Virus record (IMG/VR): IMGVR_UViG_2778261122_000008
DNA: 8,652 bases
Direction: 5' to 3' (one strand)
Source of the DNA: a virus
Lineage: Duplodnaviria; Heunggongvirae; Uroviricota; Caudoviricetes
Position numbers and translations under genes: made by a program. The notes below the pieces were generated by a model. That model had not been told where the DNA came from and made no database searches. It saw only the letters and a list, made by a program, of their open reading frames with translations. The first letter of the stretch is position 1. Each line of letters opens with the position of its first letter. This document shows positions 1-8,652 of the stretch, in pieces.

Positions 1-120
1 CAGATAAAGCAAGTACAGCACTTCCTGCTTTACGGGTAGAAGATTTGAATAAGATGATTGGACTTCCTTCCGAGGTCGCATAATCGTCCTTTATTTTTGG
101 CATAAACAACAGAGGCGAAG

Positions 121-318
121 ATGTTGACAGTTGGTAAGTCATATTCAACTAAAAATGGAAAGATATTTAGTTGTGAAAAAGATATTGGAGAAATAGACAC
201 TATCTTTCCATTTGGTGGATGGGTATACAATTCTGATGGAAGCAAAGACAGATTTGCATATTACACCAGAGGAGGTACTTATAAACTAACCAAATCAGAA
301 TATGATTTAATTATTTAG
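121..318 (+). CDS. Hypothetical small protein (65 aa) in a low-GC cassette
   Basis: ORF with GAGG 8 nt upstream of the ATG. GC is about 32% by hand count, against about 47-50% in neighbouring phage genes. Followed by a hairpin and a terminator. No family recognised. Confidence 0.45.
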   Translation: MLTVGKSYSTKNGKIFSCEKDIGEIDTIFPFGGWVYNSDGSKDRFAYYTRGGTYKLTKSEYDLII

Positions 319-330
319 CACAGAGAAGCA

Positions 331-362
331 CTGTGTATTCATTCCAACGAGTGAATACACGG
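331..362 (+). repeat. Perfect 9-bp inverted repeat (GTGTATTCA / TGAATACAC) with a 10-nt spacer; no T-tract
   Basis: Read directly: arms at 333..341 and 352..360, extendable by C331-G362. It is followed by GGAGCAATG rather than a U-run, so it is not a canonical intrinsic terminator. Confidence 0.45.
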
Positions 363-422
363 AGCAATGTCGCTCGTAACTAAACAGGAGCCGACTTGTT
401 CTGATTATTGGAAATCTTCTTT

Positions 423-448
423 GCCCTCCAGTGTGAGGGCCTTTTTAT
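423..448 (+). terminator. Rho-independent terminator candidate
   Basis: GCCCTC (423..428), loop CAGTGT, GAGGGC (435..440), then CTTTTTAT. It lies inside the N-terminal part of the track ORF 408..683, which argues that gene really starts at 513. Confidence 0.6.
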
Positions 449-512
449 ATGCATACCAATAACGCTTCACTCGAGGCGTTTTCGTTATGCAATCAAACAG
501 AAGGAGCATCCT

Positions 513-683
513 ATGCAACAGTTCGCTATTGCAGGGGCGGCATCGGTTCGCCCTTTCAACCCGATTTTATCGGTACAGCATTCACGAAAAAATATTTTAA
601 CCGGAGCAGACTTTAAACAACCAAGAATGAAAAGTTTGCTCGAAAAGCTTTGGGATATTTTGAAACAACAAGGCCGTCCATGA
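513..683 (+). CDS. Hypothetical small phage protein (56 aa)
   Basis: Internal ATG of track ORF 408..683 with AAGGAG 6 nt upstream. Lies downstream of the terminator at 423..448. Its stop overlaps the next start (ATGA at 680..683). Confidence 0.45.
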   Translation: MQQFAIAGAASVRPFNPILSVQHSRKNILTGADFKQPRMKSLLEKLWDILKQQGRP

Positions 684-787
684 GTTTTACAGATAACTGG
701 TCAGACGAAGAATTCATTCGTCAGATGAACAAAATGCTCAATCAGCACAAAGAACAGGAGAAAGATGATGATTCTGACTCTGAATGA
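680..787 (+). CDS. Possible very small acidic protein (35 aa)
   Basis: Hand-translated ORF MSFTDNWSDEEFIRQMNKMLNQHKEQEKDDDSDSE. Its start is ATGA-coupled to the upstream stop. It is below the ORF-track size cutoff and overlaps the start of the next gene by 23 nt. Confidence 0.25.
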   Translation: MSFTDNWSDEEFIRQMNKMLNQHKEQEKDDDSDSE

Positions 788-1076
788 TAAGCGTGAAATA
801 TCGCAAATAATCGCAAGTTTTACTGAGGAAGATTACGAACGAATCAACAGTGAAGTTGATCGCCTCTGCAAACGTTGCGACCCAATAAGCGAAATGCTTC
901 GCTCATATAAACCAGATGAACACACTAAGGACGCTATCGACTGGCTGGAAGATGATGACTGTAACTATCAGGAAAAAGCCGCTGAATGGTTCTGGGATGC
1001 AATAACCGAAAGAGTTAAGGCTGAATATGCCTTCGCAATATTCAAACGCAGACACATTTATGGAGAAGCAGCATGA
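765..1076 (+). CDS. Hypothetical acidic phage protein (103 aa) immediately upstream of recT
   Basis: AGGAG upstream (start could be ATG 765 or 768). Stop overlaps the recT start (ATGA at 1073..1076). Rich in Asp/Glu, net negative by hand count. No family recognised. Confidence 0.6.
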   Translation: MMILTLNDKREISQIIASFTEEDYERINSEVDRLCKRCDPISEMLRSYKPDEHTKDAIDWLEDDDCNYQEKAAEWFWDAITERVKAEYAFAIFKRRHIYGEAA

Positions 1077-1984
1077 GCAATATCGTTGAATTCGTTAAAC
1101 AGCAGGAGCAGTTATTCTGCGGGGCATTGACTGAACAGACGGTGACATGGGCTAAGGAAAGCCAGTTTGCAATTCAGTATTTCCAGAAAAATGATTACCT
1201 GGCTAAAACGGCACTGGCAAATCCAACCAGCGCACAGAACGCCATCATCAATGTTGCGGCGATCGGCATCACCTTAAACCCGGCTAGCAAACTGGCTTAT
1301 CTGGTTCCGCGCGACGGCATGGTGTGCCTTGATATCAGTTATATGGGATTGCTCCATATTGCAATGGAGTCTGGTGTTATCTCATGGGGTCAGGCAAAAC
1401 TTGTTCATGCTAACGATACCTATGAGTCAAACGGGCTTGATAAAGCACCAACCCATAAATACAACGCCTTCGGTGATCGTGGTGATATCGTTGGCGTTTA
1501 CTGCACAGTTAAGACGCCAGCAGGTGATTATCTAACGGAAGAGATGAGTCTGGCTGAAATTGAGGCTGTAAGGAAAACAAGCAAGGCGGCATTCAGCGAT
1601 AAAGGACCATGGGTAAATCACTGGAATGAGATGGCGCGAAAGACGGTCGTAAAGCGTGCAAGCAAGTATTGGCCTAAGGCATCACGTCTTGATAGTGCTA
1701 TTCACGTACTAAACGAAGAAGAAGGTGTGTGGACTGAACCAGTTATGCCGCACAAATCAGAGGAAGATATCCGCGAAGATGAACGGAAACGCCAGCAGGA
1801 AATAACGGATAAAGCACAACTTCTTTGTGATGAAATGGCTCAGGCTGAAAACATGGATGATTTGAAGCGATATTTTGCAGAAGCATATCGCCTGACATCT
1901 GGAATGAAATTGCAGCAGAACGTACAAGCCATTTACATAGAATGCAAAGCGAAACTGGAGGTTGCCAGTGAGCAAACTGTATGA
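1073..1984 (+). CDS. recT: RecT-family single-strand annealing protein (phage recombinase)
   Basis: 303-aa translation. The segment GPWVNHWNEMARKTVVKRASKYWP closely resembles the conserved RecT core as I recall it from Rac RecT (GPWVTHWEEMAKKT...KYLP). GGAG 7 nt upstream of ATG. Confidence 0.85.
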   Translation: MSNIVEFVKQQEQLFCGALTEQTVTWAKESQFAIQYFQKNDYLAKTALANPTSAQNAIINVAAIGITLNPASKLAYLVPRDGMVCLDISYMGLLHIAMESGVISWGQAKLVHANDTYESNGLDKAPTHKYNAFGDRGDIVGVYCTVKTPAGDYLTEEMSLAEIEAVRKTSKAAFSDKGPWVNHWNEMARKTVVKRASKYWPKASRLDSAIHVLNEEEGVWTEPVMPHKSEEDIREDERKRQQEITDKAQLLCDEMAQAENMDDLKRYFAEAYRLTSGMKLQQNVQAIYIECKAKLEVASEQTV

Positions 1985-2450
1985 AATAGCCAATGAATAC
2001 GCAAAGCTGATGGATTCAGATTTAGAGCCAGAGATGATTGCTGACACAATAGAAGGAATGGAAGGAGAATTTACCGATAAAATAGAGCAACTTCTTGCCA
2101 TTATTAAAAATGAATCTGGTTATGCTGAACGCCTCAAGGACGAGGCAAAGTCACTGAATGAACGAGCAGCAGTAATTCAAAATAAGATTGACAGCATTAT
2201 GGCGTATATAGCGTCATCGCTTGAAATGGTTGGCAAGAAAAAGATTCGAGCAGGTATTCACCAGGTAACAATCCGCAAACCGTCAGAAACTGTAGAAATA
2301 ATCGACTCAAGCGCCCTTCCTCCTGAATACGTTGAGTTTGAAACGACAATTAAAGCTGACAAACTGGCAATCAAACACCAACTAAAAGCAGGAATAAATA
2401 TCCCCGGCGCTCAACTCAAAGTTGGGAAACCTTCACTTCTTATCAAATAA
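1968..2450 (+). CDS. Sipho_Gp157-like protein (recombination-module accessory protein)
   Basis: GTG start with GGAGG 6 nt upstream (the track begins at TTG 1962). N-terminus (M)SKLYEIANEY and C-terminus ...NIPGAQLKVGKPSLLIK match my recollection of the Gp157 family, which often sits beside RecT/Erf genes. Confidence 0.6.
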   Translation: MSKLYEIANEYAKLMDSDLEPEMIADTIEGMEGEFTDKIEQLLAIIKNESGYAERLKDEAKSLNERAAVIQNKIDSIMAYIASSLEMVGKKKIRAGIHQVTIRKPSETVEIIDSSALPPEYVEFETTIKADKLAIKHQLKAGINIPGAQLKVGKPSLLIK

Positions 2451-2461
2451 CGGTATCTCCT

Positions 2462-2776
2462 ATGAAAAAGACTCCATGGGAGAAATGGGAAGTCGATTTC
2501 TTGCGCGAAGTGGCGGCGACAATGCCAGTTGAAGTTATCGCTGAAAAACTGGAAAGGACTGAAAAAGCAGTAATGGCGAAAGCAACAAGGATTGGCGCTG
2601 ACATTGTTAGCCGACTTCGTGGAAGACGCTGGACAAGAGCCGAAGTATCACTTTTCGGTAAGTTCTCCGCAGAAGAAATAGCAATTGCAACCTGCCGCTC
2701 AATTTATTCAGTAAGAGCTATGCGATACAAGCTAAAAAAACTCGATGAAGAAAGAGCAGGCATACGAATAAATTAA
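2462..2776 (+). CDS. Hypothetical DNA-binding protein with two tandem HTH-like repeats
   Basis: 104 aa. Internal duplication: WEKWEVDFLREV..PVEVIAEKLERTEKAVMAKATRIG versus RRWTRAEVSLFGKF.AEEIAIATCRSIYSVRAMRYKLKKL. The E-x-I-A...R-[ST]-x-x-[AS]-V pattern resembles sigma-70 region 4 / LuxR / Myb-type HTH. Confidence 0.6.
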   Translation: MKKTPWEKWEVDFLREVAATMPVEVIAEKLERTEKAVMAKATRIGADIVSRLRGRRWTRAEVSLFGKFSAEEIAIATCRSIYSVRAMRYKLKKLDEERAGIRIN

Positions 2777-2792
2777 CATGGAATAATTAACA

Positions 2793-3074
2793 ATGAAGCT
2801 AAACATCGACCTCGGCAAATACGTTATTACCGGAACCAAACACGACCTGATTCTTAATGAAAGAGGAATTATCAAAGAAGGTGAGAATGCAGGGAAAGAA
2901 ACACTAAGCCGTATCGGTTATTACAGCAAGTTTGAGCATCTGGTTAAAGAGTTATGCAACCGTGAAATCCTGTTATCTCAGGCGCAGACGCTACAGGATA
3001 TTCAGCAGCATATCGAGACTTTAGGTGTGTCACTTAGCATGGCTATTGACCAGTTCGTGGAGAGTAAATCATGA
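2793..3074 (+). CDS. Hypothetical phage protein (93 aa)
   Basis: ORF in the co-directional operon. Its stop overlaps the next start (ATGA at 3071..3074). No family recognised. Confidence 0.55.
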
Positions 3075-3235
3075 GAGGACTTGCATACAATCCCGGCATT
3101 CTTCCGGCAGAAATGATTATTCGCCAACGCGTAAAGCCAATGCCATCGAGAGAGGAATTGCTTAAGAGAAATAGTTTCGGTTATGTTAATGGCAACAAAT
3201 ATCTGAATGCGATGTGGCGGAGTGGGAAGAAATGA
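3071..3235 (+). CDS. Hypothetical small phage protein (54 aa)
   Basis: Hand-translated [61 protein letters not shown]-coupled at both ends (3071 and 3232). Below the ORF-track cutoff. Confidence 0.4.
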
Positions 3236-3762
3236 AACAAATGTCACTAATTGAGATGGATGGATTTCTGAAAGGTAAATGCATCCCAAGTGATTTAAAG
3301 GTTAACGAAACAAACGCTGAATATCTGGTGCGTAAATTTGCTGAAGCGCAGGCCAAATGCGCGGCGCTGGCGGCGGAGAATGCTGGGCTGAAACATGCAA
3401 TGGCTGTAACTCTTGAGCATGTGTCGGTCACGGATGCAGGGCAGGCCGGAGTTGCTGCAATGATTATCAACGATGCCCTGCACCACAGCGAAACTCCAGC
3501 CACCGATGCTTTTCTGGCTGAAATTCGTGCGGCGGCTCGCAACGAGGGGATTAACTATACCGCAAGCCGTCTTGCTGCTGCTTTCAACCACGGATTTATC
3601 AATAAGTCTTTACGTGAAGTTTTCGACGTTACGCGCATGATTCTGTCAGCGAAAGAAGAGTTGGCTAATGAAGCGCATCCGATTGATGGCCTGTCTGGTG
3701 AATATGCGGAGAAATCCCTTGAAGAATGGGCGGAACAGATTCGCAAAGGAGGCAAGCAGTGA
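3232..3762 (+). CDS. Hypothetical phage protein (176 aa)
   Basis: In-frame ATG at 3232 within track ORF 3214..3762, overlapping the upstream stop (ATGA). No confidently recognised domain. Confidence 0.6.
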
Positions 3763-4082
3763 GCAAAATGACAATCACAAAACAACGAGTAGAAAAAATC
3801 ATATATCGCCATGAAATGGGATTGAACAGCGATGTCACTTCCGAAGAGGTTTATGACCTGGCTGTACTGGCGCTGAATTTATCAAATATCGTAAACCTCA
3901 AGCGATACGAGCTTGATATGGATGGTTGTGACTCGTTCGGTCAGGATTGTGGCGCTGACATGACTGAAGATTCTGATGGTGCTTACGTCCTGTTTGATGA
4001 CGTGGTTAAGTTGTTTGAGTTTGATACAACCACTCAGAAGCCAGAAAGCCCAGCAAAGGAGGCAACCAGTGAGCAAGATTGA
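3759..4082 (+). CDS. Hypothetical phage protein (~107 aa), GTG start
   Basis: AAGGAGG 6 nt upstream of GTG 3759, which overlaps the upstream stop (GTGA). An alternative in-frame ATG is at 3768. Shares the junction motif CAGTGAGCAA with the starts at 1968 and 4069. Confidence 0.55.
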   Translation: MSKMTITKQRVEKIIYRHEMGLNSDVTSEEVYDLAVLALNLSNIVNLKRYELDMDGCDSFGQDCGADMTEDSDGAYVLFDDVVKLFEFDTTTQKPESPAKEATSEQD

Positions 4083-4578
4083 CTATCAGGCACTGCGTGA
4101 AGCGGCACAGAACGCGAAAAATTTAGGTGGGATTAAGAATTACAAGCGAGGCGAGCAAGCTGTTGCCGAATTTAAGTCCTTGATAACGCCACATATTGTG
4201 CTGGCGCTTCTGGAAGAACGGGAAAGAAACCAGCAATACATCAAACGCCGCGACCAGGAGAACGAGGATATTGCGCTTACGGTAGGGAAGCTGCGTGTTG
4301 AGCTTGAAGCCGTGCAGAAGACATCAGCGGCACGAATCGAAGCTATAGACCGCACTCACAAAATGTTCCAGCGTGAAAAAGACCGAGCCGATGCCGCAGA
4401 GAAGTGCATAGCAGAACTGTCTGCTAGCCACAGCAAATTGCGCGACACAATGGCTGGCATCCACAACACAATCCGAATGGATGGCGGCTATACGCCACTG
4501 GCAGCAATCCTTAACGCTGCTAAACGCGCATATGAAGAATCAGCAAGCGCAGCTGGCATTCGCATCAAAGGAGAGTGA
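4069..4578 (+). CDS. Ea22-like (Ead/Ea22 family) protein, coiled-coil rich
   Basis: GTG start with AAGGAGG 6 nt upstream. N-terminal IDYQALREAAQNA and ITPHIVLALLEERE resemble motifs I recall from enterobacterial Ead/Ea22-like proteins. Position between the recombination module and xis matches lambda ea22. Confidence 0.55.
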   Translation: MSKIDYQALREAAQNAKNLGGIKNYKRGEQAVAEFKSLITPHIVLALLEERERNQQYIKRRDQENEDIALTVGKLRVELEAVQKTSAARIEAIDRTHKMFQREKDRADAAEKCIAELSASHSKLRDTMAGIHNTIRMDGGYTPLAAILNAAKRAYEESASAAGIRIKGE

Positions 4579-4579
4579 T

Positions 4580-5011
4580 ATGACCACTATAACCGATAAG
4601 AAACAGTATCCAGGCGAGCAATATCTTAATGAGCTGATCACCAACATAGAGTTTGCTGCAAGGGCACCAGTTGAAGTCGTGAGAGCGATGGCAGCAGAGC
4701 TACAGAAGCGGCGCGAAGCTGATAGTGCCGAACCTGTAAGCCAAACTTACAAGTTGAACGAGCTATCTGGCAACTCTCCGGTAACTCCGGATAGTTGGAT
4801 AAGCTGTAGTGAGCGAATGCCGAACGATAAACAGTATGTTTGGTGTTGGGGTAAGTCTTACGGCTGGACTGAGTGCAATACCTTCGAAGGGTATTACGAT
4901 TGGTCGAGAAACAAATGGTGGGCAGTTACTGACGATGGGGAAGAACCGGCATCGAAAGTAACTCACTGGATGCCGCTACCAGAACCGCCGCAGGAGGTTA
5001 ACCGTGGCTAA
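4580..5011 (+). CDS. DUF551-domain phage protein
   Basis: ATG with GGAG 6 nt upstream. The C-terminal WISCSERMPNDKQYVWCW...KVTHWMPLPEPP matches the DUF551 hallmark (W..ERLP...THWMPLPEPP) as I remember it. Confidence 0.7.
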   Translation: MTTITDKKQYPGEQYLNELITNIEFAARAPVEVVRAMAAELQKRREADSAEPVSQTYKLNELSGNSPVTPDSWISCSERMPNDKQYVWCWGKSYGWTECNTFEGYYDWSRNKWWAVTDDGEEPASKVTHWMPLPEPPQEVNRG

Positions 5012-5110
5012 CCTGCAACTTGCCGTTAAAGGTAAATAACAATCCTCGCACTCGCGGGGATTTCTTTTATCTGAACTCGCTACGGCGGGTTTTGTTTTGT
5101 GGAGATGATT

Positions 5111-5410
5111 ATGGCCTGTTCAACATTCAACCCTCTAACGTTACAGAAATACCAGCCAGACCCTGAAGATTTATGCTCACTGTGTGGCGGAATTCATGGT
5201 AAAGCCGCCATGATCGAATGTAAGGACAAAATCCACATATGCCTTAATTGCGTTGATGTCCTCGTTGATATCAAAAATGAGAGAGAAGATAAAAAGCGTA
5301 GCGAGGCTGTTCGTGCCTTAGATTCATGGATGCGAGATGGGTATAGTGCTGCGCAAATTTATGACTTAGCAATATCAAAAGGCGAAATACCTGGAGTACG
5401 CATCGAATAA
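5111..5410 (+). CDS. Hypothetical Zn-ribbon protein (CxxC...CxxC), positional analogue of lambda ea8.5
   Basis: ATG 5111 with GGAG 6 nt upstream (the track begins at GTG 5099). Cys pairs CSLCGG and CLNC. Followed by a strong terminator. Confidence 0.6.
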   Translation: MACSTFNPLTLQKYQPDPEDLCSLCGGIHGKAAMIECKDKIHICLNCVDVLVDIKNEREDKKRSEAVRALDSWMRDGYSAAQIYDLAISKGEIPGVRIE

Positions 5411-5450
5411 GACATAACCGATATTCGAATTGAAGAACTGAAAGAACACC

Positions 5451-5473
5451 AAGCCGCCTGATGGCGGTTTTTT
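5451..5473 (+). terminator. Rho-independent terminator
   Basis: CCGCC (5454..5458), loop TGAT, GGCGG (5463..5467), then TTTTTT (5468..5473). Confidence 0.7.
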
Positions 5474-5487
5474 ATTGGGGGTAGTAG

Positions 5488-5703
5488 ATGGCTGCAATTC
5501 ACATTGCATCAATAACATGCAATGCAATTCAGATAGTTGCTTGCATTATCTTTGTTTTCCAAACCCTTCGCTCCCGACGATATTCTCCAGCAATTAACCG
5601 ACATCCTGCACAGGTTGAAGCCGTCAGGATGGCTATAGAGTTACGAAATGAGATGAATAAGGCATTAATGGAGATAGAGAAACCATTCACTGACAAACAT
5701 TAA
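5488..5703 (+). CDS. Questionable small ORF (71 aa, hydrophobic N-terminus); may be a regulatory region instead
   Basis: ORF flanked by terminators at 5451..5473 and 5726..5754. Weak RBS (GGGGG). Its first 60 nt carry a dense TGCAAT/ATTGCA inverted-repeat array, so coding status is uncertain. Confidence 0.3.
   Translation: MAAIHIASITCNAIQIVACIIFVFQTLRSRRYSPAINRHPAQVEAVRMAIELRNEMNKALMEIEKPFTDKH
5493..5528. promoter_or_regulatory. Candidate protein-binding array: four TGCAAT/ATTGCA hexamers forming two overlapping inverted repeats
   Basis: Read directly: TGCAAT 5493..5498, ATTGCA 5503..5508, TGCAAT 5518..5523 and 5523..5528. Inverted repeats are TGCAAT-tcac-ATTGCA and CATTGCAT-caataac-ATGCAATG. 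Confidence 0.35.
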
Positions 5704-5725
5704 GAGTGGAAATAGAAATCACACC

Positions 5726-5754
5726 GCCTCACACTCGATGAGGCATTTTCATTT
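5726..5754 (+). terminator. Rho-independent terminator candidate
   Basis: GCCTCA (5726..5731), loop CACTCGA, TGAGGC (5739..5744), then ATTTTCATTT. Confidence 0.5.
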
Positions 5755-5809
5755 ATCAAGATATCCAGACCTACCGCAATAATACCAACTCAATAAATGG
5801 AGATTCCAG

Positions 5810-6157
5810 GTGGAAGAAGAAATCTTCACTCGTGAAGAAGCAGCGTCGTATCTGAAGGTAGACAAAGGAACTATCACGCAGTGGATACGAAGTGGACGAC
5901 TTCAGGCCGCAAAGATAAATCCAGATAAACCTAAAAGCCCATATCGCATTTGCAAGTCAGACTGCATTGCGGCGCTTAAGTCTGTGAGACACAATAGCGC
6001 GGTGAATGCGGTTGATGTGCAGGAGGTTAAAGCATGTCAATCAAACTACGCGGTGGCACGTGGCACTGCGATTTCGTCGCGCCAGATGGATCAAGAGTTA
6101 GACGCTCTCTTGAAACATCGGACAAGAGGCAAGCGCAAGAACTTCACGATCGTCTGA
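5810..6157 (+). CDS. xis: Excisionase-like DNA-binding protein (HTH, Xis/AlpA type)
   Basis: GTG start with GGAG upstream. N-terminal FTREEAASYLKVDKGTITQWIRSGRLQAAKI is a typical excisionase-family HTH. Sits immediately upstream of int and overlaps it by 124 nt; the true C-terminus is uncertain. Confidence 0.6.
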   Translation: MEEEIFTREEAASYLKVDKGTITQWIRSGRLQAAKINPDKPKSPYRICKSDCIAALKSVRHNSAVNAVDVQEVKACQSNYAVARGTAISSRQMDQELDALLKHRTRGKRKNFTIV

Positions 6158-7194
6158 AAGCAGAAGCGTGGAGAGTAAAAAATCTCGGAGAATCACCGAA
6201 AAAGCTATTCAAGGAAGCCTGCATACGGTGGCTGCGTGAGAAATCGGATAAGAAGTCCATTGATGATGACAAGAGCATTATATCGTTCTGGATGTTGCAC
6301 TTCAGAGAAACCATTCTCTCTGACATAACAACAGAAAAAATAATGGAGGCGGTAGACGGGATGGAAAACCGCCGCCATCGCCTGAACTGGGAAATGAGCC
6401 GGGACAGGTGTTTGCGGCTTGGCAAGCCAGTGCCGGAGTATAAACCAAAGCTGGCAAGCAAAGGAACGAAGACGCGGCATCTGGCAATACTTCGCGCTAT
6501 TCTCAATATGACTGTTGAATGGGGATGGATTGACAGGGCACCCAAAATATCAACACCACGCGTTAAGAATGGACGAATCAGATGGCTTACAGAGGAGGAA
6601 TCTAAGCGCCTGTTTGCAGAAATTGCTCCTCATTTCTTCCCTGTGGTCATGTTTGCAATCACGACAGGCCTTCGCCGTTCCAACGTTACAGACCTTGAAT
6701 GGTCACAGGTCGATCTGGATAAGAAAATGGCATGGATGCACCCTGATGAAACAAAAGCTGGCAATGCGATCGGAGTTCCTCTTAACGAAACCGCATGCCA
6801 GATATTAAGAAAACAGCAGGGTCTCCATAAGAGATGGGTATTTGTCCACACCAAACCTGCCTACCGAAGCGACGGAACAAAAACAGCAGCGGTAAGGAAG
6901 ATGAGAACCGACAGCAACAAGGCATGGAAGGGAGCGTTAAAGCGGGCAGGCATTAGCAACTTCCGCTTCCATGACCTGAGGCATACCTGGGCAAGCTGGC
7001 TGGTTCAGTCCGGTGTCTCTCTTCTTGCACTTAAAGAGATGGGAGGATGGGAAACTCTCGAAATGGTTCAAAGATACGCCCACCTTTCAGCCGGGCATCT
7101 CACCGAGCACGCTAGCAAAATCGATGCGATTATAAGTCGCAATGGCACAAATACGGCACAAGAGGAGAACGTGGTTTACTTAAATGTGAGGTAA
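6034..7194 (+). CDS. int: Tyrosine-type site-specific integrase
   Basis: 386 aa with AGGAGG 7 nt upstream. C-terminal catalytic signature TGLRRSNV...HDLRHTWAS...LEMVQRYAHL (R...HxxR...Y). Ends 14 bp from the tRNA 3' end. Confidence 0.9.
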   Translation: MSIKLRGGTWHCDFVAPDGSRVRRSLETSDKRQAQELHDRLKAEAWRVKNLGESPKKLFKEACIRWLREKSDKKSIDDDKSIISFWMLHFRETILSDITTEKIMEAVDGMENRRHRLNWEMSRDRCLRLGKPVPEYKPKLASKGTKTRHLAILRAILNMTVEWGWIDRAPKISTPRVKNGRIRWLTEEESKRLFAEIAPHFFPVVMFAITTGLRRSNVTDLEWSQVDLDKKMAWMHPDETKAGNAIGVPLNETACQILRKQQGLHKRWVFVHTKPAYRSDGTKTAAVRKMRTDSNKAWKGALKRAGISNFRFHDLRHTWASWLVQSGVSLLALKEMGGWETLEMVQRYAHLSAGHLTEHASKIDAIISRNGTNTAQEENVVYLNVR

Positions 7195-7225
7195 CTTATT
7201 GATTTAAATGGTGCCGATAATAGGA
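7195..7225. other. Probable prophage attachment junction (att core overlapping the tRNA-Thr 3' end)
   Basis: Inferred from the int-tRNA arrangement. The core cannot be delimited without the other prophage end or an empty-site sequence. Confidence 0.3.
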
Positions 7226-7284
7226 GTCGAACCTACGACCTTCGCATTACGAATGCGCTGCTCTACCAACTGAGCTATATCGGC
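7209..7284 (-). tRNA. thrW: tRNA-Thr (anticodon CGU)
   Basis: The reverse complement reads GCCGATATAGCTCAGTTGGTAGAGCAGCGCATTCGTAATGCGAAGGTCGTAGGTTCGACTCCTATTATCGGCACCA (76 nt). It has a 7-bp acceptor stem GCCGATA/TATCGGC, a D-arm, the anticodon loop TTCGTAA (CGT), a T-arm GGTTCGACTCC and an encoded CCA. Matches E. coli thrW as I recall it. Confidence 0.93.
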
Positions 7285-7398
7285 CCTGAAAGGACATGTT
7301 CACGAACGTGAATCACGGTGGACAAGGTTAAAACTAACCGGGCGATGCGTCAATGGCCTTGTGAATCAAATGGCTACTTTTGCATCACCCGGTTTTAT

Positions 7399-8652
7399 TT
7401 ACGCACGAATGGTGTAATCACCAATGCCGATCCACTTATAAGTGGTCAGAGCTTCCAGCCCCATTGGGCCGCGCGCGTGGAGTTTTTGTGTGCTTACCGC
7501 AACTTCCGCCCCCAGTCCAAACTGGCCGCCGTCGGTAAAACGCGTAGAGGCGTTAACGTAAACAGCGGAGGAATCCACTTCGTTAACAAAACGCTGGGCG
7601 TTGCGCATATCGCGGGTCAGGATCGCATCGGAGTGTTGCGTGCCGTGTTCACGAATATGGGCAATGGCGTCATCCAGATCGCTAACGATTTTGACGTTCA
7701 AATCTAATGACAGAAACTCATCGTCATACTCTTCGGCTTTAACAGCCACCACCTTCGCGGGGCCTGCCTGCAACTGCGCCAGCGCGGCTGCATCAGCGTG
7801 TAACGTCACGCCGCTTTCCGCCATTTGTTTGCTTAATGCGGGCAGGAAGCTATCAGCGATGTTTTTATTCACCAGCAACGTTTCTACCGTATTACATGTG
7901 CTCGGACGCTGAGTTTTCGCGTTGACAATTACTTTCAGGGCTTCAGCGATCTCTGCACTTTCATCAACGTAAATATGGCATACGCCTATACCGCCTGTGA
8001 TCACCGGGATTGTCGACTGCTCGCGGCACAGTTTATGCAAACCAGCCCCACCGCGCGGGATCAGCATGTCGATGTATTTATCCATACGCAGCATTTCACT
8101 GACCAGCGCACGGTCAGGATTATCAATTGCCTGCACGGCACCCGCCGGTAAGCCGCAGGATTTCAGGGCGTCCTGAATCACCGCTACCGTTGCAGCGTTA
8201 GTGCGACAGGTTTCTTTGCCGCCGCGCAGGATCACCGCGTTACCGGTTTTCAGGCACAGGGAAGCAACATCAACCGTCACGTTCGGGCGCGCTTCATAAA
8301 TCACGCCAATCACCCCCAGCGGTACGCGACGACGCTCAAGACGCAGGCCGCTGTCCAGTACGCCGCCATCGATTACCTGCCCCACCGGATCGGCGAGATT
8401 GCACACCTGGCGCACATCGTCGGCAATGCCTTTCAGCCGTGCGGGCGTCAGTGCCAGACGGTCAAGCATCGCTTCGCTAAGGCCATTGGCACACGCGTCT
8501 GCAACATCCTGCGCGTTAGCGTTGAGGATACTTTCGCTTTGTGCTTCCAGTTCATCGGCGATTTTTTCCAGCACACGATTTTTTTCGCGGCTGGAGAGTT
8601 GCGCTAATTTATACGAGGCTTGCTTCGCGGCAATGCCCATTTGTTCCAGCAT
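7399..8652 (-). CDS. proA: Gamma-glutamyl phosphate reductase (glutamate-5-semialdehyde dehydrogenase)
   Basis: The 417-aa translation starts [21 protein letters not shown] and ends DYTIRA, recognisable as enterobacterial ProA. The start codon is at the window edge and the stop is TAA at 7399..7401. Confidence 0.95.

Follow-up and report, generated by a model that had tools for sequence, protein, structure and literature searches.

A ClpX-type zinc finger predicted in a small early protein of lambdoid and Shiga toxin phages, and its possible role as a decoy of the ClpX N-domain

A small early gene found in lambdoid prophages and in several Shiga toxin phages codes for a 99-residue Cys4 zinc finger protein, whose finger is very probably a relative of the zinc-binding domain (ZBD) that ClpX carries at its N-terminus, i.e., the domain that serves for substrate docking. 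The gene (positions 5111-5410, plus strand) takes the place that is held by orf55 in phage lambda. The explanation that we tentatively favor as a whole is that this early-left ClpX-type finger protein acts as a decoy of the ClpX N-domain. Sequence comparison gives a new placement, among the ClpX-type fingers, to the subfamily represented in Shiga toxin phages and in phage Sf6. All coordinates refer to the window, which is the complete 8,652-nucleotide stretch of DNA analyzed in this study (IMG/VR record IMGVR_UViG_2778261122_000008).

A lambdoid/P22-like prophage is inserted at thrW, and the window covers its left end, with tRNA-Thr(CGU) at 7209-7284 and proA at 7399-8652, both on the minus strand; this tRNA was the sole match in the Rfam scan. 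The plus strand carries, in this order, genes for RecT, Gp157, DUF5405, an Ea22-like protein (3976-4578), a DUF551 protein (4481-5011) and the zinc finger protein, followed on the 3' side by a 71-codon ORF, the HTH_17 excisionase gene xis (5810-6157) and the integrase gene int (6034-7194). The zinc finger gene is a member of the early-left (PL-type) operon, and its location between the Ea22-like/DUF551 genes and xis, given in the initial annotation, is confirmed. The prophage is a mosaic, in which a P22/Sf6-type int-xis module is combined with a RecT/Gp157 recombination module; each segment of the window (1-8652) is common, yet none of the complete E. coli genomes has 80% or more of it in one place. 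Two neighboring ORFs deserve comment. The DUF551 ORF, as listed (4481-5011, plus strand), shares about 100 nucleotides with the Ea22-like gene; translation probably begins at an internal ATG near 4580 (M34, beginning the sequence MTTITDK), just past the Ea22-like stop at 4578, and the match to PHROG 6847 starts at residue 34. The 71-codon ORF (5488-5703, plus strand), which lies 3' of the terminator and 5' of xis, gives a full-length match to PHROG 15342 (E 5e-49, no assigned function). The N-terminal half of its product is hydrophobic, and the ORF may encode a small membrane protein.

The ORF at 5111-5410 is a genuine, conserved coding gene, with the stop codon TAA at 5408-5410, and corresponds to L0063 of phage 933W, gene 19 of Sf6, and PHROG 3680. 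The profile of the latter matches the product (MACSTF...GVRIE) along its entire length (residues 1-99 of 99, E 3e-68), and at the protein level identity amounts to 99% with 933W L0063 and with VT2-Sakai H0073, and to 97% with Sf6 gene 19; the differences from the 933W copy consist of seven synonymous codons and a single non-synonymous one. Translation from ATG 5111 is served by a GGAG ribosome-binding site at 5101-5104, six nucleotides 5' of this codon, whereas the other upstream starts, GTG 5099 and ATG 5105, are without comparable ribosome-binding-site spacing, and the 99-residue form is the commonest among database members of the family. At codon 28 (5192-5194), just after the first CxxCGG knuckle, the window has Ile, while at least 90% of close relatives, 933W and Sf6 included, have Asn.

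The two Cys pairs reported in the initial annotation, in an ORF of about 99 codons, are indeed present: the first, C22-S-L-C25 (5174-5185), forms a putative zinc knuckle, and the second, C44-L-N-C47 (5240-5251), stands at the start of a predicted helix spanning residues 45-75. In the alignment of 29 full-length family members, which extends down to 26% identity with the query, C22, C25, C44 and C47 are the sole invariant columns, so that a Cys4 metal site in this zinc finger protein is well supported by sequence conservation; C37 is either Cys or Gly among the same 29 relatives and is not a ligand. One Zn ion would be bound through these four residues.

Several lines of evidence connect the finger (residues 17-60, 5159-5290, with the spacing CxxC-x18-CxxC) to ClpX. 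When the single sequence was used as a query, the best PDB match was the ClpX ZBD (2ds7, E 0.13), the best NCBIfam matches were two ClpX equivalog models, aligned at the N-termini of the models (E 0.006), and the best Pfam match was zf-C4_ClpX (PF06689), with 10.2 bits and E 0.72, below the gathering cut-off of 27 bits. All five matches of the family profile in the PDB were ClpX (best E 0.026). Full-length relatives of about 100 residues that have the same architecture exceed the zf-C4_ClpX cut-off (28.4 bits for P0041, 31.7 for P0044, which is also an end-to-end match of PHROG 3680, 43.3 for P0046 and 29.5 for P0053), and the same Pfam family is the top match of every other tested relative except P0052. 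Some distant relatives already had a precomputed zf-C4_ClpX match, and the weakest matches in the profile search were bona fide multi-copy ClpX-type finger proteins. Profile-profile comparison with hhalign gave 97.1% probability for the close family against ClpX-type fingers plus residues 1-55 of E. coli ClpX, and 98.1% when the wide family was compared with such fingers, E. coli ClpX among them. In these alignments, residues 17-56 of the query are superimposed on residues 10-49 of ClpX, with C22, C25, C44 and C47 falling on ClpX C14, C17, C36 and C39 at identical spacing. Moreover, the query has L24 and I54 at the positions equivalent to ClpX F16 and I46, and among the 29 relatives the former position is always L or F and the latter is always I, M or L. 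The finger, including these hydrophobic patch positions, is the most conserved part of the protein, rather than the C-terminus; this conservation of L24 and I54 could be due to folding alone.

Structure prediction is in agreement with these assignments. An earlier AlphaFold2 model, built from close relatives alone, was poor (pLDDT 62), and a Foldseek search of the PDB with it returned only zinc finger matches, none of them significant. The model made from a wide alignment with distant relatives (pLDDT 81.6) consists of a loop with C22 and C25, a hairpin of strands 34-36 and 42-44, the helix 45-75 and a further helix 80-88, and fingers of the treble-clef or RING-like kind rank first among the structural relatives. 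Foldseek gave no match at E<=0.001 among the BFVD viral structures. The predicted fold is a treble clef, with a knuckle, a β-hairpin and the second CxxC at the helix N-terminus. The initial annotation proposed a Zn ribbon; of that proposal the Cys4 site stands, and the ribbon does not, since the arrangement is the treble-clef one seen in the ClpX ZBD. A classical zinc ribbon would have both CxxC motifs on β-hairpins of a three-stranded sheet, and in the model the second CxxC (residues 44-47) opens a 30-residue helix.

The position of the gene was established by comparing the flanks with lambda, 933W and Sf6 (BLASTN and MAFFT). In lambda, ea22 and xis are separated by two genes, namely ea8.5 and orf55. 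On the left, the flank at 5033-5109 shares 96% identity with lambda 29288-29364, a spacer that separates ea8.5 from orf55, and on the right the flank at 5410-5483 shares 93% identity with lambda 29096-29169, which includes the 3' end of orf55 and its terminator; no DNA similarity of lambda, 933W or Sf6 to the window was found by these methods past about 5483. The GGAG, which serves also lambda orf55, and the start codon match those of orf55 within one base, and right after the TAA, in the same frame, there is a remnant of orf55 that consists of its last 16 codons and stop (5411-5461; DITDIRIEELKEHQAA). The shared flanks, GGAG, start and remnant indicate that the gene fills the orf55 slot as a cassette, and that its exact positional counterpart in lambda is orf55. 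The initial annotation had assigned the gene to the ea8.5 position; DNA alignment does not bear this out, as ea8.5 lies upstream of a conserved pair of hairpins (see below). Lambda Orf55 (29118-29285, complement) has the same upstream hairpin pair, GGAG, start within one base and downstream terminator, but its protein is unrelated, with 55 residues, a single Cys and no CxxC; between orf55 and the zinc finger gene the coding cassette has been swapped within conserved flanks. Phage 933W has been noted to keep "a portion of orf55" near xis (PMC8614690). Read-through of the TAA would append 17 residues from the orf55 remnant; the zinc finger protein ends in ...VRIE, and the remnant includes ...IRIEE.

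The 501-bp stretch between 5000 and 5500 is matched by 361 phage records, of which about 50 carry the zinc finger gene, and in other E. coli prophages ASCH or DUF4752 genes are found in the neighborhood of the slot; taken together, these observations define the orf55 slot as a variable site of accessory gene and cassette exchange. The conserved flank that bears the hairpins appears to be the junction at which the cassettes are exchanged.

Both flanks have terminator-like elements. Upstream of the gene, at 5041-5062 (-13.1 kcal/mol, z -5.5) and at 5073-5092 (-11.0 kcal/mol, z -3.2), there are two hairpins on the plus strand, each followed by a T-rich run and each kept in lambda, 933W and Sf6. 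Downstream, an intrinsic-terminator-like hairpin at 5451-5470 (plus strand) has an 8-bp stem with five G-C pairs, followed by TTTTTTATT, which agrees with the terminator originally proposed after the gene; the stop of the orf55 remnant (TGA) is located in the loop of this hairpin. No sigma-70-like promoter was found in the interval 4400-6200, and so there is no sign of a promoter belonging to the gene itself. Transcription from PL would pass the upstream hairpins only with antitermination, from which we infer that the gene is transcribed early after infection or induction and that it would be silent in a repressed prophage.

The family is small, and its setting is conserved. An exhaustive profile search of 1.84 billion representative sequences yielded just 30 proteins at E<=1e-3, and full-length ClpX was absent among these 30, which argues that the finger is old and diverged and was not copied from host clpX in recent times. 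The close relatives are found in Escherichia and Enterobacter. The gene is found, at 95-99% identity, in 317 of the 5426 complete E. coli genomes (about 6%), and in all 317 it is annotated as "hypothetical protein". In the window and in eight other contexts (933W, Sf6, a Hafnia phage, two Enterobacter prophages at proA-thrW, and three further prophages or contigs) the family gene has the same orientation, is found among small early-left ORFs, and lies 0.1-1.3 kb upstream of an excisionase or integrase gene. In two relatives, P0002 (146 residues, encoded on a 983-nucleotide contig) and P0037 (257 residues), the protein, or its part from residue 33 on, is fused to other sequence; P0002 has a PF02061 match, and P0037 has a long unrelated N-terminal part, and both fusions are probably frameshift or assembly chimeras.

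The phage protein differs from the known ClpX ZBD (PF06689; PDB 1OVX, 2DS5-2DS8) in several respects: it stands alone, with 99 residues and without the AAA+ module; its finger is preceded by a conserved YxPDP motif and followed by a helical module, neither with a counterpart in ClpX; and, as mentioned above, its own score is below the Pfam cut-off. Other phage proteins share this type of finger. Residues 1-60 of E. coli ClpX and bona fide ClpX-type fingers match PHROGs 6797, 12435, 5259, 20296 and 2945, which are likewise small phage proteins with ClpX-type fingers, one of them labeled "protease" and the others without assigned function. These are, however, separate families with separate architectures (in phrog_6797 the finger is C-terminal), and PHROG 3680 has diverged further from ClpX. 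Stand-alone phage proteins resembling the ZBD may represent a wider theme.

Via the N-domain of ClpX, ClpXP determines how long lambda O, MuA, sigma-S and many other regulators last. This domain is dimeric and serves as the docking site of SspB, RssB, trigger factor and lambda O, and its hydrophobic patch for ligands includes F16 and I46; degradation of lambda O needs the ZBD (PMC7804408). The isolated ZBD is a dimer, and, when supplied in trans, the purified domain inhibits the breakdown of sigma-S by ClpXP that RssB mediates (PMC7226468). We propose a decoy function on the basis of this known behavior of the ZBD and of the retention, in 29 of 29 family members, of hydrophobic residues at the positions equivalent to F16 and I46. 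The patch formed by L24 and I54 might bind short peptide motifs, as that of the ClpX ZBD does, and the phage protein, being a free ZBD-like decoy or an anti-adaptor, would then compete with the N-domain of ClpX for substrates and adaptors that depend on it, candidate ligands being O-type replication initiators, SspB and RssB. Chosen proteins would in this way be spared from ClpXP during early phage development, in the same manner as the purified ClpX ZBD acts in vitro. We regard this mechanism, drawn by analogy, as possible rather than probable. The fold alone does not imply any link to ClpXP, because ClpX-type fingers are found also in proteins that have nothing to do with proteolysis, such as kinase fusions and multi-finger proteins. 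No functional studies of L0063, of phage ClpX-type fingers or of zf-C4_ClpX proteins were found in the literature.

The main rival to the decoy, and one that has to be taken seriously even if it is itself uncertain, is that the finger is a generic Zn-stabilized scaffold for dimerization or protein binding, and that its target, set by the variable helical module at the C-terminus, is something outside ClpXP, such as a host defense, recombination or cell-division factor, as in the case of many accessory genes adjoining att sites. Fingers of the PF06689 family indeed occur in many unrelated architectures, the orf55 slot is a cassette site with unrelated genes in other phages, and the family has both a YxPDP motif and a C-terminal module of its own. 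The C-terminal module (residues 61-99, 5291-5407, plus strand), which by alignment and model comprises the rest of the long helix and the helix 80-88, is variable; it ends in a semi-conserved tail, G(K/E)IP(H/G)(I/V)R(I/V)(D/E), and the family has two subfamily tails, ...GKIPHIRID and ...LYDAGYRK. The C-terminal 40-50 residues of relatives P0035, P0041 and P0046 (corresponding to 5288-5407 in the window) give weak matches to the C-termini of the larger PHROGs 7798, 3483 and 1376, a hint that a mobile module may be shared at this end. What speaks against the scaffold is that the finger with its hydrophobic patch positions is better conserved than the C-terminus, and that no match points to another target (PADLOC had no match for the gene). 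The scaffold reading names no target and is less testable than the decoy.

A profile search for other carriers of this C-terminal module retrieved only fragments of the same family. A relationship to the C-terminus of the adjoining Ea22-like protein was rejected (hhalign probability 0.8%). The tail ...VRIE was considered as a mimic of the SspB XB, or "LKxh", motif that binds the ZBD (PMC7226468); the fit is poor, the tail is missing in the LYDAGYRK subfamily, and this is a weak lead.

We consider it improbable that the protein is a zinc finger regulator that binds nucleic acid or RNA polymerase, akin to DksA/TraR/Orf73 or to a small transcription factor, and tunes early or int/xis expression. 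Such a role would suit the proximity of the gene to xis and int and the long charged helix behind the finger, which is rich in K, R and E. It would also suit the precedent of other exo-xis proteins that have been modeled as RNA polymerase or DNA binders, in a study that does not include the zinc finger protein, and of lambda Orf73, a C4 homolog of TraR (PMC8614690). However, no match to Pfam zf-dskA_traR (PF01258) or to a DNA-binding family was found at E<=1, in the Enterobacter prophages zf-dskA_traR is encoded by a gene of its own within the same operon, and all sequence and fold links lead to the ClpX ZBD, which is a peptide binder. A restriction-alleviation protein of the Lar/Ral type is very unlikely: Sf6 gene 20, directly upstream of the Sf6 ortholog, is annotated as Lar-like, and two multi-finger ClpX-type proteins match Lar_restr_allev very weakly (E 0.3-0.55), but these matches are not significant, neither the query nor its family has any Lar match, and the Lar-like gene of Sf6 is a gene separate from the ortholog.

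Finally, the idea that the protein is a homolog or structural analog of lambda Ea8.5, which has a hybrid homeodomain/zinc finger fold, has virtually nothing left to recommend it, being already refuted by sequence, predicted fold and position. The two are alike in that Ea8.5 is a small zinc-binding protein of the exo-xis region (for the query, binding is predicted), of similar size (93 versus 99 residues), with Cys pairs, and encoded, like the query, somewhere between ea22-like genes and xis. Comparison with the Ea8.5 sequence (J02459, 29374-29655) gave BLASTP E 0.27 and hhalign probability 3.7%. Neither the zinc finger protein nor its profile matched 2M7A and 2M7B, the solved homologs of Ea8.5, at E<=10, although Ea8.5 itself matches them with E 2.5e-18 and 9.5e-4, respectively; there is no match by fold either. 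The order of structural elements is reversed, with the CxxC of Ea8.5 found at residues 84-87, behind its helical part, and ea8.5 occupies a different slot, upstream of the conserved hairpins, while the zinc finger gene replaces orf55. The comparison of predicted structure with Ea8.5 that was suggested initially revealed no structural similarity, and the Cys4 site, the absence of which had been named as the other ground for abandoning the proposal, is retained.

Some consequences of these results are independent of the decoy: a fold is assigned, by prediction, to a gene labeled "hypothetical" in hundreds of genomes; the presumed link to Ea8.5 is corrected; and the orf55 slot is defined as a site of cassette exchange with conserved flanks that bear terminators. 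Phage inhibitors of Lon are known, and we are not aware of a phage protein that mimics the N-domain of ClpX; none was found in the literature. A broader reading, speculative and on balance rather unlikely, is that lambdoid and Shiga toxin phages, such as 933W, VT2-Sakai and Sf6, possess a free protein that mimics the N-domain of ClpX and that, as a decoy or anti-adaptor directed against ClpXP, would shield the replication initiator or other N-domain substrates, or would stabilize sigma-S via RssB, in early development, and that this is one of several unrecognized phage families using the same strategy, along with PHROGs 6797, 5259 and others. A decoy function, if true, would offer the phage a new and simple means of host take-over, borne by clinically important Shiga toxin phages, in which toxin output follows the level of replication.
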